A stretch of 32,077 nucleotides of DNA from a virus. Location: positions 1 through 32,077 of the IMG/VR virus record IMGVR_UViG_3300029822_000049. One strand, written 5' to 3'. Below, piece by piece: positions 2,044 through 29,530 of this stretch; within the stretch, counting starts at the first letter, position 1; each line of letters opens with the position of its first letter. A program made the position numbers and the translations under genes. The notes beneath the pieces were generated by a model that saw only the letters and a program-made list of their open reading frames with translations, made no database searches and was not told the DNA's origin.

Positions 2044-2168
2044 CACTACCATTTGGCATTGACATCAGCAAACATCAAGGCACGAAAGCCGTCAAATTAT
2101 CAGGATTTTACGAGACCGGCTCGTCCGGCTTGATCATCGGCATTAATGGAAAGGAACAGGCGAAATGA
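2040..2168 (+). pseudogene. 42-aa remnant ORF carrying a GH25 muramidase N-terminal motif (MTLPFGIDISKHQG...)
   Basis: The ATG overlaps the fibre stop (ATGA). GIDISKHQG matches the catalytic N-terminal GH25 motif, but the rest is unrelated and short. Confidence 0.4.
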
Positions 2169-2245
2169 AACCCATTATCGACATTAGCGCATGGCAACGT
2201 GCCGGTTTTACCGACTGGTTGGGCACCTGTGTAAAACTAGTTTAA
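2165..2245 (+). pseudogene. 26-aa remnant ORF duplicating the endolysin 5' end (MKPIIDIS...)
   Basis: The first 24 nt are 20/24 identical to 2255-2278. All 4 differences are synonymous third positions. Similarity stops after codon 8. The ATG overlaps the previous stop (ATGA). Confidence 0.45.
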
Positions 2246-2254
2246 GGAGAAAAA

Positions 2255-3628: not shown

Positions 3629-3635
3629 GAGAAGC

Positions 3636-4223: not shown

Positions 4224-4248
4224 TTCGGTTCAGCAGGAACATCCACGA

Positions 4249-4530
4249 ATGAAAAACGCCAAAATTATTTTAGAACAAGCCAAGAAAGAAACCGATATTA
4301 GAGAAGCGTTTAACTTGTTAATCGACTTAATGATATCAGAATTTGAACACGAAAGGGATAAAATGGAAGCCTATGACAAGTTACTATTCGGGAACGGAGA
4401 CCCGACAAAAAGTATCCTATCAAGACTTGACCGCCTTGAAACAAACTTGTCAAACGCAGTCAAAGTTTTGTATGCAGTTGGTATCGCAATCTTGATTGAA
4501 ATTGTGATGCGGATTATCAAATTGATTTAG
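4249..4530 (+). CDS. tail-anchored coiled-coil membrane protein, XhlA-like lysis accessory (tentative)
   Basis: 93 aa from the internal ATG; the track ORF 4132-4530 overlaps the upstream gene. Helical N-terminus (SRLDRLETNLSNA) and a single C-terminal TM (VLYAVGIAILIEIVMRIIKLI). Lies between endolysin and holin. Confidence 0.45.
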   Translation: MKNAKIILEQAKKETDIREAFNLLIDLMISEFEHERDKMEAYDKLLFGNGDPTKSILSRLDRLETNLSNAVKVLYAVGIAILIEIVMRIIKLI

Positions 4531-4545
4531 AAAAAAGGAGAATAT

Positions 4546-4890
4546 ATGGCACAAGAAATTTTAGCGATTATCGCAGGACTAGCAGCACTTGGTACTATGA
4601 TATCGCTTGTCGTAAACGTATTGAAATATTTTAAGGTAGTCAAAGACGGAGACGCAGAAAAATGGGTACAAGGTTTAAACCTTGGAGCGTTCGTGATTGT
4701 AGCGATTGTCTATTTTTTGAACGTTGACCCAGATTGGGGAAAGATAAATGGCTACATCGAAGTTGCAGTAGTAATCCTTGGTTACCTCGTGCAAATTTTA
4801 GGTAGCAAGGTCGCCTACCCATTAATCAAGAACACCCCGGTCATTGGTTACAGTTACACCGAGCAGAAGAAGAAAGAGCCGGCTGGATAA
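4546..4890 (+). CDS. holin (three predicted TM helices)
   Basis: 114 aa. TM1 ILAIIAGLAALGTMISLVVNVL, TM2 LNLGAFVIVAIVYFLNV, TM3 IEVAVVILGYLVQILG, and a charged C-terminus EQKKKEPAG. RBS aaaggagaatatATG. Part of the lysis cassette. Confidence 0.8.
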   Translation: MAQEILAIIAGLAALGTMISLVVNVLKYFKVVKDGDAEKWVQGLNLGAFVIVAIVYFLNVDPDWGKINGYIEVAVVILGYLVQILGSKVAYPLIKNTPVIGYSYTEQKKKEPAG

Positions 4891-4919
4891 CCGCCCACAT
4901 TATCCAACACCAACCAACA

Positions 4920-4952
4920 CCGCCCGGACACCGCCCCCGGGCGGTTTATTTA
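4920..4952 (+). terminator. rho-independent terminator ending the late/lysis operon
   Basis: 8-bp GC stem ccgcccgg (4920-4927) / ccgggcgg (4937-4944), followed by tttattta. Confidence 0.75.
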
Positions 4953-4992
4953 TCCGTAAAAAAACTGCTTCAAAATTGCTATAAATTGACCC

Positions 4993-5021
4993 TTGACAAA
5001 AATCTGAACATCCCTTATAAT
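4993..5021 (+). promoter_or_regulatory. consensus sigma70/sigmaA-type early promoter P1
   Basis: TTGACA (4993-4998), 17-nt spacer, TATAAT (5016-5021). About 40 nt are nearly identical to 9261-9300. Phased AAATTG repeats lie upstream (4973, 4983). Confidence 0.8.
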
Positions 5022-5068
5022 ACCAATGTCATTCAGAAACAACTAACAAAAACAAGGAGATAAACAAA

Positions 5069-5503
5069 ATGAACACCAGCAAAGAAATCACAAGAGACCA
5101 TATAATCATCAAGGTCATAAACACAGCGAATAATTCATACGAATTAGAGTTTGCACAATATACTATCAAGTATCTGAAAAGAGAAAGCGATATTTACCCG
5201 ACCGCATACACCAGCCCTAAAAACCAGTTAGATAGAATGAAAGACGGAACATCATTATTCGTTATGAGCGATGATGAAAAAAATAAATACGAGAAACATT
5301 TTAGCCAAGTTTATAAATCTTTTGGAAGCAAATTCGAAAGCATGATAAATGACTTGCGCAAAACTTGGGGACAAGACGCACCAAAAAAACTAATACCTAA
5401 CTGGTCAGACGATAACCTAGAAACACAAAACCAAGCATTAATCGAACACTTGTTTGACCAATTCATCAAACGAGTTTATCAAGAATGTAAAGCAAAGAAC
5501 TAG
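5069..5503 (+). CDS. hypothetical early protein (first gene after P1)
   Basis: 144-aa ORF with RBS caaggagataaacaaaATG. No recognisable motif. Confidence 0.7.
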   Translation: MNTSKEITRDHIIIKVINTANNSYELEFAQYTIKYLKRESDIYPTAYTSPKNQLDRMKDGTSLFVMSDDEKNKYEKHFSQVYKSFGSKFESMINDLRKTWGQDAPKKLIPNWSDDNLETQNQALIEHLFDQFIKRVYQECKAKN

Positions 5504-5512
5504 CACAAGAAC

Positions 5513-5532
5513 GCCCGGGTTTTCACCCGGGC
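5513..5532 (+). promoter_or_regulatory. intercistronic GC stem-loop (no U-tract)
   Basis: gcccggg / ttttca / cccgggc, followed by an A-run rather than a T-run. Confidence 0.5.
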
Positions 5533-5558
5533 AATAAAAAAAACAAAGGAGAAACAAC

Positions 5559-5837
5559 ATGAAAGACAACACCAACCAACCAACAGAAAAGACCCTTGAC
5601 AACGAGATTTTAGAGGACTTCGCAGAACTAGAAGTACTGTTAGGAGAAATGCTCCAAGAAATCTTTGACAAAGGCAAAGAGGTCATCAACAACTTCGACA
5701 ATGCCGATATACCAACATTCGTGCAAATGAAAGACGAACTAGCTGAAAGACTTGAAATGTATTGCGGTATCACCCTGTTTTATGCAACGGTCAACAACAT
5801 CATGGAAGAAGAAGATGAGGAGGAAAACAAAGAGTAA
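5559..5837 (+). CDS. small highly acidic early protein
   Basis: 92 aa with about 26 Asp/Glu against 7 Lys/Arg. Ends in the tail EEEDEEENKE. RBS caaaggagaaacaacATG. Confidence 0.7.
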   Translation: MKDNTNQPTEKTLDNEILEDFAELEVLLGEMLQEIFDKGKEVINNFDNADIPTFVQMKDELAERLEMYCGITLFYATVNNIMEEEDEEENKE

Positions 5838-5853
5838 AAAAAACAATTAAATA

Positions 5854-5886
5854 GACACGCCGGGAAATTAGAAAACCCGGCGTGTC
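5854..5886 (+). promoter_or_regulatory. intercistronic stem-loop (11-bp stem)
   Basis: gacacgccggg (5854-5864) pairs with cccggcgtgtc (5876-5886), with an 11-nt loop and no T-tract. Confidence 0.55.
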
Positions 5887-5956
5887 AAACCAACAACAGG
5901 AGAGTAACATAAATAACAGAATTGTAACACAAACAAAAAAACAAGGAGAAAACAAC

Positions 5957-6757
5957 ATGGAAACCAAGAACCTAACAAAGGCACTCATCGAGTTCCAAAA
6001 CGCCGTAAAACCCGCAAAATTTGACGCTAATAACCCATACTATAACAGCCGATATGCCAGTTTAGGCGAAATCATCAACACCGTCAAAAGCGAAGCCGGA
6101 AATCACGGATTGACATGGATACAGCTACCGATATCAGAGGGAGACCGAGTAGGCGTTAGAACAATCCTAATGCACGAAAGCGGAGAGCAAATTGAGGACA
6201 GCATTTTGGTACAGTTACCGCCAACGTATGTAACCAACAGCAAAGGCATTGACGTACTGCAAAACCAAATCCAAGAGACCGGTAAGTACATAACCTATCT
6301 GAGACGTTACGCCCTTGCAAGCGTGTTCGGTTTATACGCAGAGGAAGATAATGACGGAAACCAAAGAGGTCACAGCCCAACACCGACAAGCACCCGACAA
6401 CCGTCAAAAGCCCCGGCAAAGAAAGCCACCTCCACCAAAGCCCCGGAACGTCCATACTCACCCAAAGACTTAAAGAAAGTATTAGTGGCATATGCACCAA
6501 AACTAGCATCAGCAACACCACACCAGAAGAGACAAGTTGTGGCGGTATTGTCACAGTACACGGAAAATGATGACGCCAGACACCTTGTGCAAAAATTGTT
6601 GTTTGGCTTCGACTCTATCGATGACGCAAACGATAAACTTGTCAACGCAACGCACCGGTGGCTAAACGCCAAATGGGACGGTGAAACCAAGCAATACTTG
6701 TTACCAGAACCACAAGCCAGTGAGCTTTTGGCAATAATTGAGGAAGCCACCAAATGA
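5957..6757 (+). CDS. erf: ERF-family single-strand annealing recombinase
   Basis: LTKALIEFQNAVKPAKFDANNPYYNSRYASLGEIINTVKSEAGNHGLTW matches the ERF N-terminal signature (from memory). ATG at 5957 follows aaggaga. The GTG at 5882 in the track lies inside the hairpin. Pro/Ser/Thr-rich linker. Confidence 0.8.
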   Translation: METKNLTKALIEFQNAVKPAKFDANNPYYNSRYASLGEIINTVKSEAGNHGLTWIQLPISEGDRVGVRTILMHESGEQIEDSILVQLPPTYVTNSKGIDVLQNQIQETGKYITYLRRYALASVFGLYAEEDNDGNQRGHSPTPTSTRQPSKAPAKKATSTKAPERPYSPKDLKKVLVAYAPKLASATPHQKRQVVAVLSQYTENDDARHLVQKLLFGFDSIDDANDKLVNATHRWLNAKWDGETKQYLLPEPQASELLAIIEEATK

Positions 6758-7518
6758 AAGCAAACCGGATTATCCGGGTTTCAAAACGAGAGCAATTCTT
6801 AGTCGTCCTAACCCAAACGGTACAGGACGACACGCTCTCATGGAAAGCCCGTGGGATTTTAGTTTATCTTTTGTCACTTCCAAATGACTGGCAGGTATTC
6901 GTAAGCGATTTAATAAACAGAGCACCTGACAAGGAAACGTCACTTCGAAGCGGATTAAGAGAATTAGAGAAAGCAGGTTACCTAACCAAGCAAAGAACCA
7001 GAGACAGCAAAGGCAAAATAACAGGTACAGAGTGGATAATCCACGAGAAAGCAGAAGTCCAGCCATATGGTGAAAACCCACATGTGGAAAACCCACATGT
7101 GGAAAACCCACATGTGGAAAATCAAGGACTAATTAATAAGAACTTAACTAAAGAAGTATCTGAAACTAAAAATAACTTAAATAAAGATACGCCCTCGCTT
7201 CGCTCAGGCGGTCACCGAGAAATGGTACAAGCGATTGAAAACCTAACCATGCTTGACATGAAAATCAAAAGCAACGCCGGTCAAATCGTAAGACTATCCA
7301 AAGAACTAAGGCAAGCCGGTTATGAAGCAGAACACGTCAAACAGTTTGGTGAACATTGGAAGACGGACTGGCGTTACAAGAAAGACCAGTCACCGCCAAG
7401 CATCACCGTATTACGCCAAGAAATTGGCAAAGTAAAGAACCACAAATCAACACCAACCAACAGCCTTGAAACATTCAGGCAATTGGCAAGAAAACAAAAA
7501 CAAGAAATGGAGAACTAA
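6754..7518 (+). CDS. replisome organiser / DnaD-like replication initiator (winged HTH N-terminus)
   Basis: LSWKARGILVYLLSLPNDWQVFVSDLI...LRSGLRELEKAGYL, then ENPHV x3 and an Asn/Lys-rich linker typical of Firmicute phage replication proteins. ATGA overlap with erf. Confidence 0.7.
   Translation: MKANRIIRVSKREQFLVVLTQTVQDDTLSWKARGILVYLLSLPNDWQVFVSDLINRAPDKETSLRSGLRELEKAGYLTKQRTRDSKGKITGTEWIIHEKAEVQPYGENPHVENPHVENPHVENQGLINKNLTKEVSETKNNLNKDTPSLRSGGHREMVQAIENLTMLDMKIKSNAGQIVRLSKELRQAGYEAEHVKQFGEHWKTDWRYKKDQSPPSITVLRQEIGKVKNHKSTPTNSLETFRQLARKQKQEMEN
7072..7122. repeat. 3.4 tandem copies of a 15-bp iteron gaaaacccacatgtg (each contains the palindrome CACATGTG); putative origin
   Basis: Exact copies at 7072-7086, 7087-7101 and 7102-7116, plus a partial copy at 7117-7122. 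An AT-rich tract follows at about 7127-7190. Confidence 0.6.
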
Positions 7519-7520
7519 AA

Positions 7521-7913
7521 ATGTATCACGAACTATCACTAATCGGAAGACTAGGGCGCGACCCGGAAGCACGCTACACCAAAGACATGCACGAGAGTAG
7601 CAGTTTCAGCGTAGCGGTAAATTCGTATGGAGAAGATAATCCTGTCATTTGGATAAACGTAACCGCATGGCGTGAAGCCGCACAATTTTGTAACAAATAT
7701 TTACGAAAAGGCGACTTGGTATATATCGCAGGAACGCTAAGAGCAGACAAAGACACCGGCGCACCAAGACTGTATCAAAAACGAGACGGAACGACAGGAG
7801 TCCAATTCGAAATCAATGCCAGAAACGTCATCGGATTAGCTTATGGCAGCAACAAACAAGAAAAAACAGCGGAAAATCAAGAGGGAGAATGGGGAGATGA
7901 TATTCCATTCTAA
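7521..7913 (+). CDS. ssb: single-stranded DNA-binding protein
   Basis: OB-fold start LIGRLGRDPEARYT, an acidic tail and the canonical C-terminal tip GDDIPF. Confidence 0.92.
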   Translation: MYHELSLIGRLGRDPEARYTKDMHESSSFSVAVNSYGEDNPVIWINVTAWREAAQFCNKYLRKGDLVYIAGTLRADKDTGAPRLYQKRDGTTGVQFEINARNVIGLAYGSNKQEKTAENQEGEWGDDIPF

Positions 7914-7969
7914 TTGAGTATGAAAATCGCAAAAAACATCGAAAAATCAACGCACAAAGGAGAATAACA

Positions 7970-8368
7970 ATGACAACCAACCAAATTATTGAACTAGAGG
8001 AAGTTTGCAAGGAATACCGAGTCAAAATTGAAGAAGTCGAACAACTAAAAAAAGAGCTGGAAGAGCAAATTGATACTATTTTGCCAGAACATGTCAAACT
8101 ATCAGTTAACGCAACAAGAAATGTTTTCAACGAACGCATCAAAAACGCAAAAGATAAAGCAAGCGAACTTGAAAAAACTATCAAAAAAGGCGTTCTGGAA
8201 CGTAAAGAAACTTACAAAACGAATGGAGTTACAGCAGTTTACAATGAGGGTCGTGTGTCATGGGACGACAAGTTTTTGAAAGGACTGGCAGCGACTGTAC
8301 CGGCAGTACTCCAAGGGCGAACAGAGGGAGACCCTTACGTAAGTATCAGAATGACAAAAATGGAGTAA
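7970..8368 (+). CDS. hypothetical coiled-coil protein (possibly Gam/Gp157-like, unverified)
   Basis: 132 aa. RBS caaaggagaataacaATG. Sits in the recombination module. Confidence 0.6.
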   Translation: MTTNQIIELEEVCKEYRVKIEEVEQLKKELEEQIDTILPEHVKLSVNATRNVFNERIKNAKDKASELEKTIKKGVLERKETYKTNGVTAVYNEGRVSWDDKFLKGLAATVPAVLQGRTEGDPYVSIRMTKME

Positions 8369-8370
8369 GC

Positions 8371-8598
8371 ATGTTGACGTACAGCGCATTAGATAAATTT
8401 ATTGACAACGCAAAAATTGACATACAAGACCAGTGCCGGTACTGGCTAAGCCTACTTGACCCATTTTTGCAAGGTTATGCCAAGATGTTATTCGACAGCT
8501 TAAAGGCAACCAAAATCAAAAACATAGGAGACGTATCGTATGCAGAACTAGCGTTGAAATTAGCATCCTACATGCAAGAAAAATCACTAGAAAACTAA
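8371..8598 (+). CDS. hypothetical protein
   Basis: 75 aa from ATG 8371 (ggagtaagcATG). The track ORF start at 8260 overlaps the previous gene. Confidence 0.55.
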   Translation: MLTYSALDKFIDNAKIDIQDQCRYWLSLLDPFLQGYAKMLFDSLKATKIKNIGDVSYAELALKLASYMQEKSLEN

Positions 8599-9717: not shown

Positions 9718-10038
9718 ATGAACGCAAAGAAACAATACACCCAAGAAGTCATCAACAAAGTCAATGAATTAGGGTTCGAACTTAATTCAGTCCGACCAGA
9801 GAACACTTGGTCACGTCAAGTTATCGCCTACTCGTTAGACCGAGACCGAGAAATCACCGTTTATCGAAGCGTTGAAGAAACCACAACACATGCACACTTA
9901 AAAGCCTATCAAAGCATTGAGGAAGCCAAAGAAACTATCAAAGCATATGAGAGAGCAATCGCAGCAGCGGAGTACATCCAAAGCATTGACATAAACCAAA
10001 TGCTAGAAGTTGACTGCAATCGCATTATTGAAAGATAA
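9718..10038 (+). CDS. hypothetical protein
   Basis: 106 aa. RBS caaaggagaaaaacaaaATG. Confidence 0.65.
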   Translation: MNAKKQYTQEVINKVNELGFELNSVRPENTWSRQVIAYSLDRDREITVYRSVEETTTHAHLKAYQSIEEAKETIKAYERAIAAAEYIQSIDINQMLEVDCNRIIER

Positions 10039-10072
10039 GAAACCAACAACCAACAAAACCAAAGGAGAAACC

Positions 10073-10558
10073 ATGAAAGCAACAAAACAGGACACCAAAG
10101 CAAAGCAGAGCCTAATCAACGCAATCGCTAAAGCGGTCAAGATGACATACGAACAGTATAAAGACCACTCGGTCATTGCGAGGTCATTCGGGAGCAGTAC
10201 CTATGACATAATCGAAAGCCATAGCGAACAACAGACCCAGAACCCAGACACCTACGTCTGCACTACAACAGAAGATGACGTTATTTATTTAGCACAAGCA
10301 GTTGACGTTGACAACAGACAGGACATGTACTATGAAATCGCTGTCATCATTGCCAACAATCTGCACAAGTACAGAAAACCAGACACGGTTGTCATCAATG
10401 GAAGAACCGTTGATTGGGAAGTGGCGTTACGGTACATGGACGATGAAATCAGAGAAGCAGTCGCAAGCTATGAGACTATCACCTCCAACCAAGAATTCGT
10501 AGACGAATACGCCAAGCAACACTATTACGATTTCAAAGAGGTTTTTGAAATCAACTAA
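10073..10558 (+). CDS. hypothetical protein
   Basis: 161 aa from ATG 10073 (aaaggagaaaccATG). Confidence 0.65.
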   Translation: MKATKQDTKAKQSLINAIAKAVKMTYEQYKDHSVIARSFGSSTYDIIESHSEQQTQNPDTYVCTTTEDDVIYLAQAVDVDNRQDMYYEIAVIIANNLHKYRKPDTVVINGRTVDWEVALRYMDDEIREAVASYETITSNQEFVDEYAKQHYYDFKEVFEIN

Positions 10559-11888: not shown

Positions 11889-12311
11889 ATGAAACAGATT
11901 AGCAACTATGCAGAAACCCTTATAGAGAGCATTGTGTTGGGGGCTTGGGAAAGGGGGGCATATGCCGACACGGTTCTTGGCTACGACGAGGAAGAGGAGT
12001 GGGACTACCAAAAAAAAGAGGTGGAACTACTAATGACTTACATCGCCGACCTTGAAGCCGAAGTCGAGGCGTTGCGACCGTATCGGGATGGGTGTGACCC
12101 GCAAGAGCGGTTGCCAGAAGTAAATAAATATGAACCGAACACCTCGGTTAATGTCGATGCATTAATCCTGACGGCCAGCGGTGTTGTTTTTTGGGGCACG
12201 TTATATTACCACTTCGACAAGAAAGAATGGTTAAGGATTCGAGACGATATGGTAATCCTTCGCTGGTATCCGCAACTGCCATATTCAGAAAGCGAGGTGA
12301 GAAATGAGTGA
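11889..12311 (+). CDS. hypothetical protein with DUF551-like C-terminus (tentative)
   Basis: 140 aa. RBS aaggagcgtggggaATG. ERLPE...VVFWG...ILRWYPQLP resembles the DUF551 pattern. Locally GC-rich. Confidence 0.55.
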   Translation: MKQISNYAETLIESIVLGAWERGAYADTVLGYDEEEEWDYQKKEVELLMTYIADLEAEVEALRPYRDGCDPQERLPEVNKYEPNTSVNVDALILTASGVVFWGTLYYHFDKKEWLRIRDDMVILRWYPQLPYSESEVRNE

Positions 12312-12717
12312 ATTGAAACGGTGTCCGTTTTGTGGGGGTAGGGCGGATTACATTCAAATATTGGGTAATTATGAACGTCCGCACGAAGTATATTGTTTTA
12401 CTTGTGATGGAGGAATAACAGAGGGCAGGTCAAAGGACGGCGTTATCCACAACTGGAACACCCGTCCGATTGAGGACGAACTCCGAAAGCGCATTGCCGA
12501 GCTTGAGGCGGCGCAACGCTGGACACCAGTGAGCGAGAGGTTGCCGGAGTGCGAGAAGGATGTTCTCGTATTCTGGGGAAAAGCATTGGACGGTTCAAAG
12601 ATTGATTGGTTTGGGACTGCGTGGCGAAACGATATCGATGATGGTAAATGGTGTACAGACCCGATTGTGCCCACCCACTGGATGCCACTTCCGCAACCGC
12701 CGGAGGTGCAGGAATGA
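12304..12717 (+). CDS. Lar-like zinc ribbon fused to a DUF551-like domain
   Basis: LKRCPFCGG...CFTCDG...HNWNTRP, then a coiled-coil linker, then WTPVSERLPE...VLVFWG...THWMPLPQPPE. Confidence 0.6.
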   Translation: MSELKRCPFCGGRADYIQILGNYERPHEVYCFTCDGGITEGRSKDGVIHNWNTRPIEDELRKRIAELEAAQRWTPVSERLPECEKDVLVFWGKALDGSKIDWFGTAWRNDIDDGKWCTDPIVPTHWMPLPQPPEVQE

Positions 12718-14661: not shown

Positions 14662-15399
14662 ATGGATAATAACATTATAAAAAATAGGATTATCGGCACA
14701 GGAGAAGAACCACTAGACCAAATCCTATACAATCCAAAAAACTGGCGTATTCACCCACGTTATCAACAAGACGCATTAGAGGGAGTACTAAAAGAAATTG
14801 GCATAGTCCAAACGGTAATTATTAATAACATTACAGGCAACTTAATTGATGGGCATTTACGCTGTCGCTTAGCTGAAAAAAACGGACAAACAACAATACC
14901 AGTAACGTATGTTGAATTATCGGAAGAAGAAGAGGAAATAATCCTTACCAGCTTTGACCCGATTAGTGCAATGGCAACAACAGATAAAGAAAAACTAACA
15001 GAATTAATAAATTCAATCGAAACAGAAAATGAAACAATCCAAAATATATTAAATTCAATCGAAGACATAAATAAATTAGGGAACAAAAACGAAGGAACAG
15101 CCTTAGATATACTAACGTTAAACATAGATGAACCACTTACAGAAGTACAACCCGGAGACATTTATTACCTTGGGAATCATGTCCTAGTATGCGCTTCAAC
15201 TATCAAAAATAGCGAAACATGGAGACCATACTTTAACGATAATATGATTTTAGTACCATGGGCTAATCCATTAACTTTATTATCTGACCTCGCAGAAAAA
15301 ACAACAGTATTAGCACTCAATCCTCAGCCTTATGTTTGCGGGCATATTATTGATAGATACAAGGAAACAAATCCAGACAAGGAAATTATAAAATTATGA
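14662..15399 (+). CDS. ParB/Srx N-terminal domain protein with a decayed methylase-like C-terminal stub (DpdB-analogous position)
   Basis: NPKNWRIHP...VIINNITGNLIDGHLRCRLAEKNG...IPVTYVELSEEEE. C-terminus GDIYYLGNHVLVCAS...MILVPWANP, where ParB-methylase fusions have G(D/N)HRLlCGD...DPPY. AT-rich. Its stop overlaps the next ATG. Confidence 0.65.
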   Translation: MDNNIIKNRIIGTGEEPLDQILYNPKNWRIHPRYQQDALEGVLKEIGIVQTVIINNITGNLIDGHLRCRLAEKNGQTTIPVTYVELSEEEEEIILTSFDPISAMATTDKEKLTELINSIETENETIQNILNSIEDINKLGNKNEGTALDILTLNIDEPLTEVQPGDIYYLGNHVLVCASTIKNSETWRPYFNDNMILVPWANPLTLLSDLAEKTTVLALNPQPYVCGHIIDRYKETNPDKEIIKL

Positions 15400-16223
15400 A
15401 AAAAACAGGAGGAGCCCACTACCAAAAAAACAATACTCAGCTATATTTTATGGCGATAGGTGCTGACGACGCTAAAATATTTAATAACGCAAAAATCGCA
15501 AAAAATACATTATTACCATTAAACGCAATCACGCAAAACAATTTAGAAACGATAAAAAACCTACCAAACTTAAACCTATTAATAGATTCAGGCATTTACA
15601 ATTTAGCGAACACGATATCAAAAAAAGAAAAACTAACATTCACTGAAGCATTAAATATAAATCCAGAAAGAATACCAAGCTTCGAAGCTTATTATTCTAA
15701 TTATATTAAAACCATAAAAGAACTAGAACCACACATATGGGGATATATAGAATTAGACATAGGTGGCGAAAAAATAAAAACAAAATTACGTAAACAAATA
15801 GAAAAAGACGGATTAATACCTATACCTGTATGGCACCCATTAATTGATGGATTAAATTACCTCCAACAACTATTAGAGGAATACGACAGAATCTGTATAG
15901 GTAACCTATCTTATACTTCCAACAACGAAAGAATGAAAATACTACAAACCGTATTTAATATTAGAAATAATATAAAAAACAAAACATGGATTCACGCATT
16001 AGGCATGACACCAAATACCTTGTTGTATACATACCCAGTAGAGTCATGTGACTCATCTGCATGGGTATCAGGCATTAGATTCGCGAACCTTAAGGTTACA
16101 GGCGGAGCTGAAAATTTTGGCACACTAAGTAAAAAATACTTATACAACAAGCAAAGTAAAAAACATTATGAAAAAGCAAAACTATTAGCTAATTACGAGA
16201 CATATTTTATGGAATTAAACTAG
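15396..16223 (+). CDS. dpdA: tRNA-guanine-transglycosylase-superfamily protein, DpdA-like DNA transglycosylase candidate
   Basis: 275 aa. Ordered motifs LLIDSGIYN, WIHALGMTP and VESCDSSAW resemble TGT/ArcTGT DSGG(F/Y)Q, HLFG(V/A)G and D(L/M)FD(S/C). No CxCxxC zinc site. Flanked by the ParB-like gene and near the YhhQ-like gene. Confidence 0.55.
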   Translation: MKKTGGAHYQKNNTQLYFMAIGADDAKIFNNAKIAKNTLLPLNAITQNNLETIKNLPNLNLLIDSGIYNLANTISKKEKLTFTEALNINPERIPSFEAYYSNYIKTIKELEPHIWGYIELDIGGEKIKTKLRKQIEKDGLIPIPVWHPLIDGLNYLQQLLEEYDRICIGNLSYTSNNERMKILQTVFNIRNNIKNKTWIHALGMTPNTLLYTYPVESCDSSAWVSGIRFANLKVTGGAENFGTLSKKYLYNKQSKKHYEKAKLLANYETYFMELN

Positions 16224-16251
16224 CAAAAATACACACAGGAGCAAAACAATT

Positions 16252-17076
16252 ATGGAAAAAATAGTATATAAAGTGGAACCCGGCATGGATAGAAAACTAA
16301 TAAAAGCAACAACCTACCAAATGCGAAATTTCTATCGACAGTTTGGAGACGGTTTCTTTGGCGTACTAGATGTTATGAATTACATTCAACACCAAGCAAT
16401 AGTTCAAATGGCACGTAAAGGAGACCATGTACTAGATGTTTGTTGTGGCAGAGGATTGTTATTACCAATGCTACGTTATGAACGAAAAAATATAGCTTCT
16501 TACACAGGAGTTGATATAGAACCTAAAAACGCAATATGGCAAACAAAACGAGTAACAGACAACAAACCAATTGAAAAAGATTATTACCCATTCGAAACAA
16601 AATTCATAAGGTCAAACGTCGCTACGATGTCGCCACTATTACAACAAAAACACTATAACCTTGTAGTTTACACTTCCTCAATTGAACACATGCAAAAAAT
16701 TGACGGATACAAGTCATTACAAGAAATTCGCAAAATAATACACCCGAACGGAACACTCGTTCTAACTTGCCCAAATACACCAGAACACAAAGACGGATAT
16801 GATACACAGTATGCAGCTCATGTTTACGAATGGAAACGAAGCGAACTACTCGAAGCATTTCAAGACATTGGATATGAAATACAAAAAGAATATTCAATAC
16901 TTACAACAAAACAAGATATTAAAAACGAAGTACCTGAAATATACAAAAAACTTGAAGACATCATTCCTACATCATGGATAATTGGCGTTCTATCACCACT
17001 TGTTACACCCATAAAATCAAAAGAAATAGCATTCATATTAAAACCATTGCAAAACAATGCTATAAAATCACCATAG
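16252..17076 (+). CDS. class I SAM-dependent methyltransferase (small-molecule type; no DNA-methylase motif IV)
   Basis: Motif I VLDVCCGRG, acidic post-I GVDIE, then YNLVVYTSSIEHM and IHPNGTLVLTCPN. I found no (D/N/S)PP(Y/F/W) and no PCQ-type motif. Confidence 0.8.
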   Translation: MEKIVYKVEPGMDRKLIKATTYQMRNFYRQFGDGFFGVLDVMNYIQHQAIVQMARKGDHVLDVCCGRGLLLPMLRYERKNIASYTGVDIEPKNAIWQTKRVTDNKPIEKDYYPFETKFIRSNVATMSPLLQQKHYNLVVYTSSIEHMQKIDGYKSLQEIRKIIHPNGTLVLTCPNTPEHKDGYDTQYAAHVYEWKRSELLEAFQDIGYEIQKEYSILTTKQDIKNEVPEIYKKLEDIIPTSWIIGVLSPLVTPIKSKEIAFILKPLQNNAIKSP

Positions 17077-17090
17077 AAAGGAAAAAACCC

Positions 17091-17759
17091 ATGAAAAACA
17101 AAGAAAGAAACATAGTCCTTATAATTGTCGCCTTAATCGGAATGTACATTGCTTCGCAGGCGATAGCGGACGTTGCAGCGACCCGAATGATTCAAATCGG
17201 AAAAATCGTATTACCCGGTGGCGTACTCATGTTCGCATTAACTTTCACGTTGCGAGACTTTATTCATAAGCGATTAGGTAAAAAATGGGCACGAGCAACA
17301 GTCATCATGGCAGCAGTAATGAATGTCGTCCAACTAGCGTACCTGTATTTTATCGGCAAGCTAGACACGCCTGTATTTTATGGTTTCAATGAAGAATGGC
17401 GAAATATCTTTGCTATTGTCCCAGCGGTATCAATCGCCAGTATTGTAGCTGAAGTATCCAGTCAACTAATTGACACGGAAGTGTATCAATTCATTATGGA
17501 CAAATATCCAAAATTGCCACAGATATTCAGAGTATTAATATCAAACTTCATCGCCTTACCATTCGACTCGTTAATCTTTGCGTTACTCGGTTTTGTTATT
17601 TTGCCACAATTGTTTGGCAGTACAAGTTACACATTTTTTGACGCAATAGCATTGACATCAGGACAGATTATTTACAAAGCGATAGTGACCATTTTATCTG
17701 CTCCAGCCATTTATTTAATCAAAGACGAGCCGATAAAGGTGTCCTTAATGACAGAATAG
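17091..17759 (+). CDS. yhhQ: YhhQ/VUT-family queuosine-precursor (preQ0/preQ1) transporter
   Basis: 222 aa from ATG 17091, polytopic. FALTFTLRDFIHKRLGKKWARATV, SQLIDTEVYQF and PFDSLIFALLGF align by eye with E. coli YhhQ (FLATDLTVRIFGAPLARRII, GQILDVHVFNRL, VSDTLAFFFIAF). Same length class. Confidence 0.75.
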   Translation: MKNKERNIVLIIVALIGMYIASQAIADVAATRMIQIGKIVLPGGVLMFALTFTLRDFIHKRLGKKWARATVIMAAVMNVVQLAYLYFIGKLDTPVFYGFNEEWRNIFAIVPAVSIASIVAEVSSQLIDTEVYQFIMDKYPKLPQIFRVLISNFIALPFDSLIFALLGFVILPQLFGSTSYTFFDAIALTSGQIIYKAIVTILSAPAIYLIKDEPIKVSLMTE

Positions 17760-24174: not shown

Positions 24175-24615
24175 ATGGCTATCACCGTTGAGTTTGATAC
24201 AACCCAAGTAAAAGCAGCACTAAAGCGACTTGACGATACAGTTAGGGGTGAAGCAGCAAAGCAAGCCTTACAAACCGGAGCACATGTCATTGAAGCTAAA
24301 GCAAAGGTAAACCTATCAGGACACGGACTGCACAAAACCGGTAGACTAATCAACAGCGTAGAAGTGTTTAACGTTACTCCAAAACAAGCATTAGTAGGCA
24401 GTCGTGGTGTCATTTACGCACCTGTACACGAGTTTGGAACGGTCATTCGTCCAAAGAGAGCCAAGGTACTATCATGGATTGGACAGGACGGCGTTCGTAG
24501 GTTTGCAAAAATGGTTCGTATACCGGCACGTCCGTGGCTAAGACCAGCAGCTGAAGAAAGCAAAGCGGAAATAGCAAACGTCATGGCAATGGTTATCAGG
24601 AGCTTTTTGAAATGA
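24175..24615 (+). CDS. HK97 gp10-like tail completion protein
   Basis: 146 aa. The GHGLHKTGRLINSVEV pattern is typical of the gp10 family. Confidence 0.65.
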   Translation: MAITVEFDTTQVKAALKRLDDTVRGEAAKQALQTGAHVIEAKAKVNLSGHGLHKTGRLINSVEVFNVTPKQALVGSRGVIYAPVHEFGTVIRPKRAKVLSWIGQDGVRRFAKMVRIPARPWLRPAAEESKAEIANVMAMVIRSFLK

Positions 24616-25010
24616 CAGAACCTATCGAGCAAAGTATCAGAACGCACCTAATCACCCACCCGGAAGTGTTCGCCCTTGTAGGCGATAGAGTATATCCGGG
24701 CTACAAACACCAAGGCGTTGAAAGTCCTTGCATACTGTATCAAAGAGTAAGCACAGAACGAGCATTGACCCACGACCAAAAACCAAGCGGACTAACAACA
24801 GCACGTATTCAGTTTGACGTTTTAAGCGACACCCTTGACCAAGCCCTAACCATTGCAGATGTTATGCGAATTGCGCTTGTTGGCTATCGTGGAGACCTAG
24901 GTGAAAACTACGCCCAAATCATTTTGCCAGCGTTGGAAATGCACGGAGATAGAGAAGAAACAACCGCTCGTGTTATTATTGATTACAGCATCAGTTTTAC
25001 AGAGGAGTAA
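24612..25010 (+). CDS. tail terminator (DUF3168-like)
   Basis: 132 aa. IRTHLITHPEVFALVGDRVYPG...PCILYQRVS matches the DUF3168-type pattern. ATGA overlap with the previous gene. Confidence 0.65.
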   Translation: MTEPIEQSIRTHLITHPEVFALVGDRVYPGYKHQGVESPCILYQRVSTERALTHDQKPSGLTTARIQFDVLSDTLDQALTIADVMRIALVGYRGDLGENYAQIILPALEMHGDREETTARVIIDYSISFTEE

Positions 25011-25016
25011 AGAAAG

Positions 25017-25526
25017 ATGACAAAATTTGCAGCAACCGGCACCGGCTTATGGTGCGACAACATTGAACTAGCGCAAGTATCAAATATTACAGGACCAAAC
25101 CTGTCCGTTGACATGGTTGATGTCAGCACCCATGACGGAAACAATTGGGAAGAATTCGTACCAACCATTTTACGAACAGGCACAGTAACACTTGACCTGT
25201 TGTATGACCCAAGCAACGCAACACACGTTGAAGCGTTAAGAAAACTAGTTGACCGAGAAAAGAAAACGTATGAATTGCGATTTCCAGATACCGCCAGAAG
25301 CAAATGGATTTTTGATGCTTTTGTATCCGGGTTTACTCCAACCGCACCAGTAGCAGGAGTATTGACAGCTAGTGTTACATTCAAACCAACCGGAGAGCCA
25401 ACCCTAATAGGAAACTACCCGGCAAAAAGCGGTTCAGCTACTGAAACAACTAGAACAGAACCCAAAACAACTATAACCAAAGCGACACCAAAAGTCGCCA
25501 CAGACAAAGAAGAAACTAAGGAGTAA
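25017..25526 (+). CDS. major tail (tube) protein, paralog 1, with low-complexity C-terminal extension
   Basis: 169 aa. RBS gaggagtaaagaaagATG. Shares MTK(F/Y)AATGT, GPN(L/I)SVDMVDVS.HDG.NWEEFV and GFTPTAPVAGVLTASVT.KPTG with 25530-25961. Confidence 0.8.
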   Translation: MTKFAATGTGLWCDNIELAQVSNITGPNLSVDMVDVSTHDGNNWEEFVPTILRTGTVTLDLLYDPSNATHVEALRKLVDREKKTYELRFPDTARSKWIFDAFVSGFTPTAPVAGVLTASVTFKPTGEPTLIGNYPAKSGSATETTRTEPKTTITKATPKVATDKEETKE

Positions 25527-25529
25527 GAA

Positions 25530-25961
25530 ATGACGAAGTATGCAGCAACTGGAACAAAGCTCACCCGGGGAGCATATCCGGGCACAGAACTAGCACAAGC
25601 AACCAACATCAGCGGTCCGAACATCAGCGTTGACATGGTTGACGTATCAGAGCATGACGGCGGTAATTGGGAAGAATTCGTTGCCACCATTTTACGGTCT
25701 GGCAACATTACCGTTGACATCATTTATGACCCAGATGAAGACACACACACAAACGCAACCGAGGGTTTAATGCACGACCTTGTAAACCGCACCAAAAGCG
25801 TATGGAATTTAGTACTTCCTACCACGCCAGTAAGATATTTTAGTTTTGAAGCGTATGTGGCTGGTTTTACTCCAACCGCACCAGTAGCCGGTGTCCTAAC
25901 CGCTAGTGTAACACTTAAGCCAACCGGCGCAATAACACCACCCTTGACCACCACACCCTAA
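25530..25961 (+). CDS. major tail (tube) protein, paralog 2
   Basis: 143 aa. Has its own RBS (taaggagtaagaaATG). Roughly half the residues match paralog 1 by eye. Confidence 0.75.
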   Translation: MTKYAATGTKLTRGAYPGTELAQATNISGPNISVDMVDVSEHDGGNWEEFVATILRSGNITVDIIYDPDEDTHTNATEGLMHDLVNRTKSVWNLVLPTTPVRYFSFEAYVAGFTPTAPVAGVLTASVTLKPTGAITPPLTTTP

Positions 25962-25970
25962 GGAGAAAAA

Positions 25971-26324
25971 ATGCTAACACGTGAACAAATCCTAGCAGTA
26001 CAAGATATCACCCAAGAAACCGTTGAAGTACCAGAATGGGGCGGTTCGGTATACGTCCGTGGTATGACCGGTACAGAACGAGACGCTTTTGAACAAAAAA
26101 TACTTGTACAAAAAGGCAAGAAACGAGAAGCCAATATGGACATGTTCCGAGCAAAACTTATTGCTTATTCTGTCTGTGACGAAAAAGGCGAGCTACTGTT
26201 TGCTGAAGAAGATATCGAAGCGTTAGGTAAGAAGTCAGCAAGTGCCTTACAGCGCATTTTTGACGTAGCCATGCGTTTAAGTGGATTATCACCAGATGAC
26301 GCAGAGGAACTGACAAAAAACTAA
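25971..26324 (+). CDS. tail assembly chaperone (gpG analogue)
   Basis: 117 aa, acidic, located between the tube genes and the TMP. Ends ...ACA AAA AAC TAA. Confidence 0.8.
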   Translation: MLTREQILAVQDITQETVEVPEWGGSVYVRGMTGTERDAFEQKILVQKGKKREANMDMFRAKLIAYSVCDEKGELLFAEEDIEALGKKSASALQRIFDVAMRLSGLSPDDAEELTKN

Positions 26325-26653
26325 GAGAGGGCAGTCGGAGATTTTACTTCCGACTTGCCCTTAAACTCGGCATGACAGTAACAGAACTATTATCAAGAAT
26401 ATCAAGCCGAGAATTGACAGAATGGATGTCTTTTTTTGAATTAGAACCGTGGGGCACAGAGACAGAACTGCTCGGACACGCTATCACCAGCGCAACCATA
26501 GCCAACGTGAACCGGGACACCAAGAAAAGACCTAACCCATTCACAGCAAATGATTTTATACCAGAATTCGACCGGTACAAAGCAACTGAGAACCAAGCCC
26601 TGAAAATCCGTCAAATCAACGCCATGTTTGGCGGAAAGGAGATAAGCAAATGA
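25971..26653 (+). CDS. tail assembly chaperone frameshift fusion (gpGT analogue; -1 shift at 26321)
   Basis: The -1 frame is open from 26300 to 26653. The ATG at 26372 has no RBS. The stop overlaps the TMP start (ATGA, 26650-26653). Confidence 0.7.
26315..26360 (+). promoter_or_regulatory. programmed -1 ribosomal frameshift signal: slippery heptamer A_AAA_AAC plus downstream stem-loop
   Basis: The heptamer at 26315-26321 is in the X_XXY_YYZ register of the 25971 frame. A 7-nt spacer follows, then the stem gggcagtcgga (26329-26339) / tccgacttgccc (26349-26360) with one bulged T. Confidence 0.75.
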
Positions 26654-29529
26654 GTACAATTGCAGATTTAGCGGTAAAGCTAGGACTTGACTCTAGTGGT
26701 TTTAGTAAAGGCGTTGGACAAGCGCAAGGTGATTTATCCAAGCTTGAACAATCAGTCAACAAAGTTCGTGAAGCCGGTAAAAAAATATCAGACGTTGGCA
26801 AAGCTATTTCTATTGGCGTTACTGCACCTGTTACCGCCGCAAGTATCGCACTTTTGAAGTTTGGTTCAGACGCTCAAAAATCACTTCAAATTGAAAAAGC
26901 ATTTAATGATATTGCGTCCTCAGCCGGACGAATGGGAAGAGAAGTTTTGGCAGGACTGAAAATGTCAAGCCAAGGACTAATCACCAACACCGAATTAATG
27001 AAATCGTTTAACCTTGCTGCCAACTTAGTCAGCACAGATTTTGCACTTAAGCTACCAGAAGCCATGAAATATCTTGGCAAAGTATCAGCTGCAACCGGTC
27101 AAGACATGAGTTATCTATTGGATAGTCTTGTCAAAGGTGTTGGTAGATTATCGCCAATGATTTTAGACAACCTAGCGGTGCAAGTAAGCCTAACAGACGC
27201 TTATGATAAATATGCTAAAAGCATTGGCAAAACAGCAGACGAACTAACCAAAGCAGAACAGCAAACCGCAGTCATGAATGAAACCATGCGCCTATTAAAA
27301 CGCAACACCGCAAGCATGGGAGATGAATTCGGTACAACCGGCGACAAAATCAAAACCGCAATGGGTAACGCAAAAGACGCAATTGGAAAACAACTTGCCC
27401 CAGCACTAAAAGACGCAGGAGAAAGAATCATTCCGCTTGTCAATCGTTTTGCTGAATTATTCAAAGAGGGCAACTCACTGCACCCGATTATTACAGTGCT
27501 TGGAGACACTATCAACAAACTAATAGGACACGCAGAAAACCTTGTAAACTGGCTAAGCCAACTTAACCCACAAGTGGTAGAGAATACAGCCAAATTTACC
27601 CTGTTTTTAACTGTGCTAGGACCTGTACTGACCGTTGTCGGAAAACTAACAACCGGTTTTGGCAGTTTCATGGGCGTGCTAGGAAAAATAGGAACACTAT
27701 TCAAAAACACAATTATTGCGTTTGAGGGTGGCAACCTTGTATTAGCATCGACAGGGTTAGCCGCCAAAGGCGCAGCAAGCGGTGTTGCCACGTTATCTGT
27801 ATCGCTTAGCAAATTAGCCATGTTCGGCGGTTGGGGATTATTAGTAGGCGGTGCAATCGCACTCGGAAAATGGCAAAAAGAGCTTGAAAACACTAGTAAC
27901 ACTGTTGCAGATAGCATGAGAGATATTGACGGTGTTTTAATCAAAAGCGGACAAAGCTTTGATGATTGGCGTGAAAGTGTCAACAACGCATTAAAAGACA
28001 TAGAGCTTCCAAAAGGACTTTCAGAATGGGATATGCAAGTTGCATTTATCAAAACCCAAATGGAAGACCTTGTAAAAGCAGGCGTAATCACCGCAGACGA
28101 AATGGAAAGCCTATACTGGCGCATGCGTAACCCCGGTTCAGGTGGTGGCATGGCAGTTATGAACTACGTCCACGGTTTGGTAGAGGGATATGAAACCCTA
28201 AAGGAAACCATGTGGAGTATTGTTCCGGCAATGGAAGCGTATGATGACGCTATCGACTACCAAGAGGGTTTAGTCGGTGTTGGACGGACAGCAGAAGAAT
28301 TAGAAAAAGTTCGTGACAACGCAGAGGAAGCCACAAGCGCAGCCGCAGAACTAGCCGCGGAATTACAATCATTTACCGTTCAAGTAGATGACATTACAAG
28401 CCTAACAAAAAACTTCGGGAGTATCGTTTCTTTAGCGGAAAGCTACACCACAGAACTTGAAAATATTGCAAAGGTGCAAGAGCGAATTAAAGAGCTAGAA
28501 CCGTTCGAAGATACCGGCGGACGGATTGACGGTGTTTGGAGGTCAGCAGCGAAAGTCAAAGAAGAGCTGGAAAACTTGCGTGGTGAAGTATCAAAGAGCG
28601 AAGAAGCCATGCAACGTATGGCAGACCAAATGACCTTAAACATGCTACAAGCTACTATTGCAATCGGTGGCGTCACACAGGCAGAAGCAGAAGCATATTT
28701 CAAAATGGCAGTTGATATGGGCGTCATCAGTCAAGATGCAGCAGATAAAGCAATCGAAGCCTATGGCGATGCAGTAGACACTATCAATGACTATGTAATA
28801 GAAACAAAAACCGGCATAGTAGAAGCAAGCGCAGAACAGTACTGGCGTGTTATCCGAGATATTGAAAGTCAACAATTCCAAGATAAAATAGCCAACCTTA
28901 TTGCAGAGGCAGAACAGTTTGACGAAACATGGTCGAATAGGGACGCTTTAGAGTTCGGGCAAAAAGTTGCTGATACATTATTAGAAACCGGTCAGTTTGG
29001 AGAGGATTTCAGCGCAATTGACGCATTAGAATTCCTTGGAAAAACCATTCCAGTTGAATTGAAAAACGCCGCAATCGCACAAGACAATTTGGACAGATTC
29101 CAAAACTTCGAATTTATTCCAAAAACTATTGACTTTATTCTAGGCGATACATCAGAAATAGAGGGATACAATCCACCAACCCGAACCGGAACTGTAAATT
29201 ATCAGCTAGGCAATACTCCGACGTGGAATCCACCGTCTTATGGTCCAACACTAACACCAAGAGCAACAGGCGGTAGAGCAATTACAGATAGCGTTTACTT
29301 GGTCGGCGAGCGCGGGCCCGAGCTATTCATTCCTGATGTGTCCGGAAACGTTATTCCAAACTGGCAACTTGACGTATCAAGCACTTCATCATTTGATGAA
29401 AGAGCATTGGCTCGGGCTGTCGCAACCGCCATGAGAGAGGTATATCAGGAACAAGCCTTGCAAGATGAAATGAACACCACACAAAAAAGAAGTCGTAGAA
29501 GTGCTTTTGTAGAAGTAGAGGATTGGTAA
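26650..29529 (+). CDS. tape measure protein
   Basis: 959 aa, Ala/Gly/Leu-rich and helical with hydrophobic central segments. Canonical position. Confidence 0.9.
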   Translation: MSTIADLAVKLGLDSSGFSKGVGQAQGDLSKLEQSVNKVREAGKKISDVGKAISIGVTAPVTAASIALLKFGSDAQKSLQIEKAFNDIASSAGRMGREVLAGLKMSSQGLITNTELMKSFNLAANLVSTDFALKLPEAMKYLGKVSAATGQDMSYLLDSLVKGVGRLSPMILDNLAVQVSLTDAYDKYAKSIGKTADELTKAEQQTAVMNETMRLLKRNTASMGDEFGTTGDKIKTAMGNAKDAIGKQLAPALKDAGERIIPLVNRFAELFKEGNSLHPIITVLGDTINKLIGHAENLVNWLSQLNPQVVENTAKFTLFLTVLGPVLTVVGKLTTGFGSFMGVLGKIGTLFKNTIIAFEGGNLVLASTGLAAKGAASGVATLSVSLSKLAMFGGWGLLVGGAIALGKWQKELENTSNTVADSMRDIDGVLIKSGQSFDDWRESVNNALKDIELPKGLSEWDMQVAFIKTQMEDLVKAGVITADEMESLYWRMRNPGSGGGMAVMNYVHGLVEGYETLKETMWSIVPAMEAYDDAIDYQEGLVGVGRTAEELEKVRDNAEEATSAAAELAAELQSFTVQVDDITSLTKNFGSIVSLAESYTTELENIAKVQERIKELEPFEDTGGRIDGVWRSAAKVKEELENLRGEVSKSEEAMQRMADQMTLNMLQATIAIGGVTQAEAEAYFKMAVDMGVISQDAADKAIEAYGDAVDTINDYVIETKTGIVEASAEQYWRVIRDIESQQFQDKIANLIAEAEQFDETWSNRDALEFGQKVADTLLETGQFGEDFSAIDALEFLGKTIPVELKNAAIAQDNLDRFQNFEFIPKTIDFILGDTSEIEGYNPPTRTGTVNYQLGNTPTWNPPSYGPTLTPRATGGRAITDSVYLVGERGPELFIPDVSGNVIPNWQLDVSSTSSFDERALARAVATAMREVYQEQALQDEMNTTQKRSRRSAFVEVEDW

Positions 29530-29530
29530 T

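Follow-up and report, generated by a model that had tools for sequence, protein, structure and literature searches.

Phage DNA is known to contain eight 7-deazaguanine derivatives, and with each addition to the list came new enzymology as well as new patterns in the evasion of restriction and CRISPR. DpdA exchanges guanine in DNA for a 7-deazaguanine by the chemistry of tRNA-guanine transglycosylase (TGT), and bacterial DpdA requires the ParB-fold ATPase DpdB (PMC10164549). In the DpdA1 systems of Queuovirinae (Escherichia phages 9g and CAjan; dG+/dPreQ0) the transglycosylase is accompanied by FolE, QueD, QueE and QueC, and deletion of dpdA from CAjan abolishes dPreQ0 modification (PMC7544227). 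Other phages (group 3 of Hutinet et al. 2019, including Salmonella phage 7-11 and Mycobacterium phage Orion) encode DpdA but no genes for preQ0/G+ synthesis: 76 such DpdA-only phages were catalogued in 2019, a host-derived or imported base was proposed for them, some encode the transporter YhhQ, and their modification status was left open (PMC6884629). YhhQ imports preQ0 (PMC6884629, PMC7544227), and the literature has already mentioned a ParB-like gene upstream of a phage dpdA as a possible "dpdB homologue". Here we describe four genes at positions 14662-17759 of the viral sequence IMGVR_UViG_3300029822_000049 (the window: all 32,077 nucleotides of that IMG/VR record), which probably form a salvage-type module for the post-replicative modification of DNA with a 7-deazaguanine. 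DpdA-only phages, phage yhhQ and the logic of salvage are already known; what is new is a candidate tailoring enzyme, the methyltransferase MTx, and probably its product.

The genes of the module are:

14662-15399, + strand: ParB-like protein (ParBx), 245 amino acids; PHROG matches and a weak Pfam ParB_N match
15396-16223, + strand: predicted DpdA-family DNA-guanine transglycosylase (TGT superfamily, family I), 275 amino acids; phrog_887 match and fold
16252-17076, + strand: class I S-adenosylmethionine (SAM)-dependent methyltransferase MTx, 274 amino acids; Methyltransf_23 match
17091-17759, + strand: Vut_1/YhhQ-type queuosine-precursor transporter (COG1738), 222 amino acids; Vut_1 and TIGR00697 matches

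An earlier note, made by reading the sequence, had described these as four co-directional open reading frames (ORFs) between a nuclease gene and the small terminase gene, and all four were found there on the + strand, the nuclease being of the VRR-NUC type. The ATGA at 15396-15399, which the same note had pointed out, couples the ParB-like and DpdA-like genes translationally. Intergenic gaps are -4, 28 and 14 nt, and Shine-Dalgarno-like sites lie 5' of 14662, 16252 and 17091; a longer ORF for the Vut_1 gene, starting at 16974, is also present. A promoter and terminator scan of the module gave fewer sites than shuffled sequences, and no terminator-like site on the + strand within the module. 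The claim that the contig closes on itself also holds: the first 99 bases are identical to the last 99 (an exact terminal direct repeat), and the same phage occurs in independent assemblies as contigs of ~32.0-32.1 kb with differing circular permutations. The closed phage genome is thus ~31,978 bp.

The product of 15396-16223 is a protein of the TGT/DpdA fold. It matches phrog_887 ("queuine tRNA-ribosyltransferase", 3e-26), the family that also holds the homologous transglycosylase of the DpdA1 systems, and has no match in Pfam (TGT, PF01702, included) or NCBIfam. Because sequence-profile searches of its family against the PDB gave noise only (SarX helix-turn-helix, BH3822; no match to DpdA 7ui4), a fold comparison was needed. 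The AlphaFold2 model, built from a 44-sequence alignment, has a pLDDT of 92.7 and a pTM of 0.90. Searched with Foldseek against the PDB, it matches Zymomonas TGT (5e-6 to 6e-5), DpdA 7ui4 (1.7e-4) and Cap10, with generic TIM barrels interleaved among the matches and TM scores of 0.36-0.56. Against BFVD, 17 of 35 matches (E<=1e-3) are named as phage or virus DpdA or "queuine tRNA-ribosyltransferase", or come from phages known to carry DpdA (nt-1, phiST); the remainder are unnamed, and the best match has a TM score of 0.79. A hidden Markov model (HMM) of the family to which the protein belongs (family I) finds the DpdA of CAjan at 1e-16, with the motifs LLDSG, HxxGxT (H-x-G-x-T) and CDSSSW aligned, and that of Vibrio phage 83AMN at 6e-17.

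The TGT-superfamily-like motifs that had been picked out by eye, LLIDSGIYN, WIHALGMTP and VESCDSSAW, are present and contain the family-invariant residues D64/S65/G66, H200/L202/G203 and S217/D219/S221/W223. Three aspartates are invariant in the 44 family members: D64 (in DSG, with an aromatic residue at +4), D121, and D219 (in CDSSxW). The window protein keeps every family-invariant residue, and in the alignment with DpdA1 its D64 falls on the DSG motif and its D219 on CDSSSW. Going by order and spacing rather than by superposition, D64, D121 and D219 would be equivalent to D95, D130 and D256 of bacterial DpdA, three aspartates found to be invariant in TGT as well as in bacterial DpdA (PMC10164549).

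Since the founders of the TGT superfamily act on tRNA, and the PHROG label names a tRNA-ribosyltransferase, the enzyme could in principle target tRNA rather than DNA, the module then serving to manipulate host or phage translation. This we regard as highly improbable. The closest characterised relatives, by sequence and by fold, are DNA-modifying DpdA enzymes of phages; the protein, with 275 amino acids and only two cysteines (C167 and C218), lacks both the TGT zinc motif CxCxxC...H and the C-terminal tRNA-binding extensions; and the protein encoded by the coupled gene combines the DNA-binding fold of ParB with a DNA methyltransferase remnant.

By profile comparison the transglycosylase belongs to a large unannotated family: family I comprises at least 965 clusters at 90% identity (word-indexed search) and 198 clusters at 50% identity (exhaustive search, E<=1e-30). 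No family-I DpdA was found in cultured phages, and none is close to any cultured phage. On the family-I HMM the window protein scores 334 bits, other members score up to ~510, and DpdA1 scores 55; because of the difference between 334 and 55 bits the window DpdA is placed in a subfamily separate from DpdA1. Membership of DpdA3 (the type of Campylobacter phages and of Cellulophaga phage phiST) was rejected, the HMM finding no ORF at E<=1 in a 45-kb stretch of phi19:2 that spans the dDG cluster. The phiST CGPG_00065-type protein M4SLA5 is a weak fold match to the window model (7e-4, TM 0.45). Among cultured phages the query is best covered by Bacteroides phage BS162P1, in which a distant DpdA-like gene lies between QueC- and QueE-like genes; ParBx and MTx are absent from it.

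The usual surroundings of family-I genes were compared in ~88 loci (80 from IMG/VR, plus loci from Logan and ENA), and those of MTx in 80 loci from IMG/VR, four from Logan/NCBI/JGI and 11 from bacterial genome assemblies. In both sets genes were taken as the longest ORF (some starts are therefore too long), flanks extend to at most 10 kb, many contigs are fragments, and the QueC model derives from few sequences; because the two sets were gathered with different queries, fractions of co-occurrence are not population estimates. The canonical family-I operon consists of genes for a ParB-like protein, DpdA, a protein of ~117 amino acids, QueD, QueE and FolE, with QueD/QueE/FolE adjoining the DpdA gene in 73-78 of ~88 loci, the window itself excepted. 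The ~117-amino-acid protein is identified as DpdL, the proposed decarboxylase of 7-carboxy-7-deazaguanine (CDG), because it matches gp040 of phi19:2 (2e-33) and has the HRHxF signature in all 73 of 73 sequences. Family-I relatives thus carry DpdL together with FolE/QueD/QueE and without QueC, a logic shared with the phiST/phi19:2 systems (dDG; Cui et al. 2023); in the window phage both DpdL and the CDG pathway are missing. In four family-I loci QueC replaces DpdL. DpdL is absent where QueC is present, and the slot after DpdA thus holds whichever enzyme settles the fate of CDG. Tandemly duplicated family-I DpdA genes were seen in four loci (L006-L008 and L023), with a QueC gene of its own after each copy in L023; such duplications may represent two specificities in one phage.

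The gene at 16252-17076 had been read as a class I SAM methyltransferase, and the searches agree: its product matches Pfam Methyltransf_23 at 6e-14, with Methyltransf_11, _31 and _25 also above cutoff, carries the glycine-rich motif I VLDVCCGRG, and gives an AlphaFold2 model (pLDDT 93.5) for which Foldseek returns more than 1,000 class I methyltransferase fold matches. Homologues number 736, the best 120 of the 736 being at 51-99% identity (~270 amino acids). Identity across members is 45-69%, and an alignment of 31 sequences has 58 invariant columns. Among 50,697 cultured-phage records there is no MTx homologue, and a nucleotide search of the module against these 50,697 records gave no match.

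METHYLTRANSFERASE (MTx) is a DpdA-linked family. In 83 of the 87 loci of the viral set the DpdA-like gene adjoins MTx, often overlapping it. Fifty-one loci have only the ParB-like, DpdA-like and MTx genes (many are related contigs, and the type is also found, prophage-like, in Faecalibacterium and Gemmiger assemblies); 13 have Vut_1 too; 15 have QueD, QueE and FolE without QueC or DpdL; and three have QueC. Dereplication at 80% identity leaves 22 clusters, with a DpdA-like gene in 20, QueD/QueE/FolE in 11-12 and QueC in 3, and no other gene family is comparably conserved near MTx. Of 75 DpdA clusters (70% identity), 25 have MTx and 39 have DpdL, and none has both (0/75). The DpdA-like partners belong to two divergent subfamilies; that they form a single family was rejected, since bit scores on the family-I model split family I (at least 240 bits) from family II (23-64). 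Family I is represented only by the window, its relative L001/L002, and one further locus (L093), the members of family II being more DpdA1-like (1e-44 to 1e-58 on phrog_887). Because MTx is conserved far better than its partners, the link to DpdA appears functional and not just inherited, and MTx is probably a tailoring enzyme for a 7-deazaguanine, as judged from these gene neighbourhoods. In the literature searched, which was incomplete so that absence is not proven, neither a class I methyltransferase linked to DpdA nor this DpdA subfamily with its ParB-like partner was found described.

The module could instead be one of plain DpdA-only modification, with host preQ0 or preQ1 inserted unchanged and MTx occupied with an unrelated task (on a small molecule, RNA or protein, or in ordinary anti-restriction). 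Precedent exists in the DpdA-only phages already catalogued (PMC6884629), and nothing in MTx links it chemically to deazapurines: the fold neighbours are generic, and the matches in NCBIfam (UbiG, UbiE, BioC, CpaM) all fall far under cutoff. Yet the adjacency of MTx to DpdA-like genes extends over two divergent DpdA subfamilies and many phage backbones, the genes often overlap, and MTx and DpdL are mutually exclusive. MTx also has no (D/N/S)PP(Y/F/W) motif, which includes the DPPY/NPPY motif of DNA methyltransferases, and no DNA methyltransferase match in Pfam (PC/ENV motifs were not searched separately). We therefore consider an unrelated role for MTx quite unlikely.

Less likely by far is that MTx acts on guanine in DNA, for instance by N7 methylation, which would create a better leaving group and make the exchange irreversible. 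The idea draws on a similarity to mRNA cap guanine-N7 methyltransferases that is weak but keeps recurring (PF03291 at 3e-4, the same family being hit by many homologues); Ecm1, RNMT and vaccinia D1 are also among the best matches in fold. This similarity is, however, no better than that to many other class I methyltransferases, MTx has no evident DNA-binding domain, and family-I DpdA accompanied by DpdL or QueC works without MTx.

Two contig records (L094/L096, a 98.7-kb contig) show MTx in a larger setting. At ~3950-12320 of L094, genes for ParB-like, DpdA-like, MTx, QueD, QueE and FolE proteins stand in a row, followed by genes for three further class I methyltransferases, a sulfotransferase-like protein, a GT2 glycosyltransferase and a nucleoside 2-deoxyribosyltransferase. 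The locus could be a multi-step hypermodification cluster.

The ParB-type N-terminal domain proposed for the product of 14662-15399 is weak in Pfam (ParB_N, 9.6e-5, 22.8 bits, under the cutoff of 26.3) and clear among PHROGs (ParB-like families phrog_498 at 9e-22 and phrog_620 at 3e-15); an NCBIfam scan gave no match. The best PHROG match is to ParB-fused DNA methyltransferases, over the N-terminal part of that family. Alignment of 20 sequences shows that the ParB/Srx-fold domain carries DGHLR in the window and (D/A)GHxR in homologues, and a C-terminal domain, GDxWxxGxHxL...CPYPGP...VQPDxYxAGxxLDRY, is common to most homologues, the window protein included. This domain looks like a degenerate remnant of the start of a ParB-fused DNA methyltransferase, with DPPY gone. 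The ParB-like gene stands immediately upstream of the DpdA-like gene in 83 of ~88 family-I loci, mostly with a 4-bp overlap.

The arrangement recalls the bacterial DpdA-DpdB system of Salmonella Montevideo, in which a gene for a TGT-like transglycosylase lies beside a ParB-fold gene, and the window transglycosylase matches 7ui4 in fold. There are differences too: the window phage has no DpdC-K genes and no sequence-level match to 7ui4, and bacterial DpdB is a protein of ~40-47 kDa (half of an 80-95 kDa dimer) that has a DGQQR motif and, at its C terminus, a helical SspE-like domain, whereas ParBx has 245 amino acids, DGHLR and a degenerate methyltransferase-like C-terminal domain, in which the SspE-like feature was not seen. 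Of the earlier proposal of a DpdB-like partner, the coupling of a ParB-like protein to DpdA stands; by its domain composition, however, ParBx is an analogue of bacterial DpdB and not an orthologue, the C-terminal domain being different.

The product of 17091-17759 is of the Vut_1/YhhQ type, as had been supposed. It matches Vut_1 (PF02592) at 1.8e-23 (84 bits, cutoff 27.2) and scores 61.9 bits on the TIGR00697 "queuosine precursor transporter" equivalog (cutoff 50.95), and it has about six hydrophobic segments. The statement that precursor synthesis genes are missing from the whole genome was likewise upheld. Pfam scans of 38 + strand ORFs found no GTP cyclohydrolase I (FolE), PTPS/QueD, radical-SAM QueE or QueC; these scans leave out the tail genes at 24175-32023, which are covered by a six-frame, filter-free search of the circularised genome. 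There, HMMs built from phage FolE, QueD, QueE, QueC and DpdL gave a best E value of 0.14, which is noise; searched in the same way with models of their own, the four genes of the module reached 1e-70 to 1e-137. Across the 75 DpdA clusters Vut_1 occurs in 10 of the 25 with MTx and in 3 of the other 50, and the combination of ParB-like, DpdA, MTx and Vut_1 genes without synthesis genes recurs in about eight lineages. The phage Vut_1 protein is probably an importer of the base.

It is nonetheless conceivable, if unlikely, that the transporter is no supply line, and that it alters the queuosine-tRNA status of the host or is dispensable, the base coming wholly from de novo synthesis by the host. 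In CAjan, which also encodes a YhhQ homologue, deletion of yhhQ left modification unchanged (PMC7544227), and Hutinet et al. found YhhQ homologues uncorrelated with any phage group (PMC6884629). Moreover, most MTx loci have no transporter, and the Vut_1 gene of the window differs in GC content from the other three genes. Against this stand the enrichment of Vut_1 in MTx clusters without synthesis genes (the 10/25 versus 3/50 above), its persistence within the module of L001 despite relocation, and the presence of an ABC importer in the equivalent place of another MTx locus. That locus (L093, on a contig of NCBI GCA_054403375.1) has MTx, ParB-like and family-I DpdA genes at ~1750-8450, preceded by genes for VRR-NUC, a 249-amino-acid tRNA-synt_1c protein (the size of a glutamyl-Q tRNA synthetase) and the ABC importer (permease and periplasmic binding protein). 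It may represent another uptake-based supply, perhaps with an aminoacyl-type decoration. A further variant is found in L012 (IMG/VR 3300027515_000041, positions 349-3426 of a 9.7-kb contig), which has ParB-like, DpdA, QueC and Vut_1 genes but no QueD/QueE/FolE; this layout points to CDG being imported and then converted to preQ0, another kind of half-salvage.

If the four genes do form a salvage-type modification module, the transglycosylase would remove guanine from phage DNA and insert a 7-deazaguanine base by the double displacement typical of TGT, with D64 as general acid/base and D219 as nucleophile (roles assigned from the motif alignment). The ParB-like partner would load the transglycosylase onto DNA or position it there, in parallel to the ATP-dependent need of bacterial DpdA for DpdB. 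The base would not be made by the phage, and would come from the host pool, through the phage Vut_1 transporter, or both. MTx would fill the gene slot that in relatives belongs to DpdL or QueC, and would methylate the deazaguanine either as the free base or after insertion. DNA modified in this way would be protected from restriction and from other DNA-targeting defences. More tentatively, as a possibility rather than a probability, we propose that MTx gives rise to a further, hitherto unseen 7-deazaguanine derivative in DNA, inserted by DpdA with a ParB-like loader, in a system that would be frequent both among uncultured phages and in the prophages of gut Clostridia (e.g., Faecalibacterium), the window phage being a salvage-only form.

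Our guess at the most natural chemistry is SAM-dependent methylation of CDG, for example to a methyl ester, because about half of the dereplicated MTx lineages carry FolE/QueD/QueE but only ~3/22 carry QueC, and none carries DpdL. Carboxylates are common substrates of class I methyltransferases. As MTx also occurs with QueC, methylation of a ring position is possible too, and would give a deazaguanine methylated at a ring N, O or C; an O6-methyl group on a base of genomic DNA would change its pairing. HuiC, the SAM methyltransferase of the huimycin pathway, O6-methylates free preQ0 (bioRxiv 10.64898/2026.04.15.718813), so class I enzymes can take free deazaguanines. HuiC resembles the role suggested for MTx in acting on a free 7-deazaguanine base and differs in belonging to actinomycete secondary metabolism, the two having been compared by description only. 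DpdM (DUF3109), which converts dPreQ1 to mdPreQ1, offers the parallel of a methyltransferase that further modifies a 7-deazaguanine of phage DNA. That MTx is itself a DpdM was rejected: it has no DUF3109 match or CxxxCxxCC metal sites, has a Rossmann fold unlike that of the metal-binding DpdM, and occurs mostly with pathways that end at CDG.

Several observations weigh against the salvage module and its methylated product. The DpdA of 9g alone modifies plasmids, and phage DpdA1 needs no ParB-like partner (PMC6884629); because DpdA1 works without one, we only infer that the partner is necessary here. The absence of an effect of the yhhQ deletion in CAjan counts in the same direction, though CAjan makes its own preQ0 (PMC7544227). 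MTx is seen with CDG-only pathways and, less often, with pathways containing QueC, and because it accompanies both, the methyl acceptor is not deducible from context alone; nor do the fold neighbours of MTx, all generic class I methyltransferases, discriminate a substrate. Since the 51 MTx loci with neither synthesis genes nor a transporter lack both over the 10 kb inspected, Vut_1 is not essential to the MTx subtype. Finally, no cultured phage with MTx or family-I DpdA was found, hence the subtype is known from genes alone.

Set beside the described phage systems, the window shares with DpdA1 phages a homologous transglycosylase and the post-replicative exchange of G for a deazaguanine (shown there, predicted here), and differs from them in having a ParB-like partner and MTx and no FolE, QueD, QueE or QueC. 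With the DpdA-only phages it shares the lack of preQ0/G+ synthesis genes, but no dedicated methyltransferase has been described for those (PMC6884629). The earlier note had called a transporter-only supply combined with an extra methyltransferase an unusual configuration. The methyltransferase bears this out, having no described DpdA-linked counterpart that we found; the transporter-only supply does not, as it was proposed in 2019 (PMC6884629) and the layout recurs in metagenomes.

In the remainder of the genome, where all plausible genes are likewise on the + strand, Pfam matches identify tail, baseplate and endolysin (GH25 + M23 + SH3) genes; genes for an ERF recombinase, the single-strand binding protein SSB, a Cro/CI-type helix-turn-helix protein and the VRR-NUC nuclease; and small and large terminase, SPP1-type portal and HK97-type capsid genes. 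The same phage backbone, at 43-69% amino-acid identity, is found in L001, a 36.6-kb contig that has the same four genes between VRR-NUC and terminase genes, with Vut_1 upstream of the ParB-like gene and not after MTx. Because L001 keeps all four genes with Vut_1 moved, they stay together through a rearrangement. In the window the ParB-like, DpdA and MTx genes have a GC content of 31-34.5% (25-27% at third codon positions, GC3) against 42.5% for the genome (GC3 ~43-47%), and that of the Vut_1 gene is 39%; in L001 the GC content of the module equals that of its own genome. A recent replacement of the low-GC trio in the window phage from a low-GC donor is possible.

Judging by relatives of its capsid and endolysin, the host of the window phage is probably a gut clostridial Firmicute; comparison of the large terminase was uninformative on the host. 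The ParB-like/DpdA-like/MTx trio also occurs in complete or draft genomes of gut commensals, namely Faecalibacterium, Gemmiger and a Barnesiella bin (L181, L183, L184, L185, L187; L183 is Faecalibacterium prausnitzii NZ_CP186691, 2,345,276-2,362,085), where it presumably lies in prophages. Commensals with such prophages (L183 and others) are cultivable sources of MTx loci. Being highly conserved and locked to DpdA genes, MTx is a testable candidate enzyme for another derivative; family-I DpdA with its conserved ParB-like partner bears on why bacterial DpdA needs DpdB and some phage DpdA does not; and the natural salvage-only variants make the source of the base experimentally testable. The presence of the system in prophages of abundant gut commensals (Faecalibacterium, Gemmiger) may matter for phage-host dynamics in the gut and for sequencing artefacts in gut viromes.

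The window phage seems to stack several counter-defence functions, of which the modification module would be one. The 182-amino-acid ORF at 10010-10558 (+ strand) matches the anti-CRISPR AcrIC5 over its last ~50 residues (1.3e-14, 54.5 bits, cutoff 27), and its product is possibly an anti-CRISPR fused to an N-terminal domain of unknown type. At 12304-12717 (+ strand) a protein of 137 amino acids combines Lar_restr_allev (restriction alleviation) and DUF551. Directly after the endolysin gene, a 200-amino-acid ORF at 3621-4223 (+ strand) has a weak Methyltransf_23 match (1.5e-5, below cutoff) and may be a second, unrelated methyltransferase-like gene.

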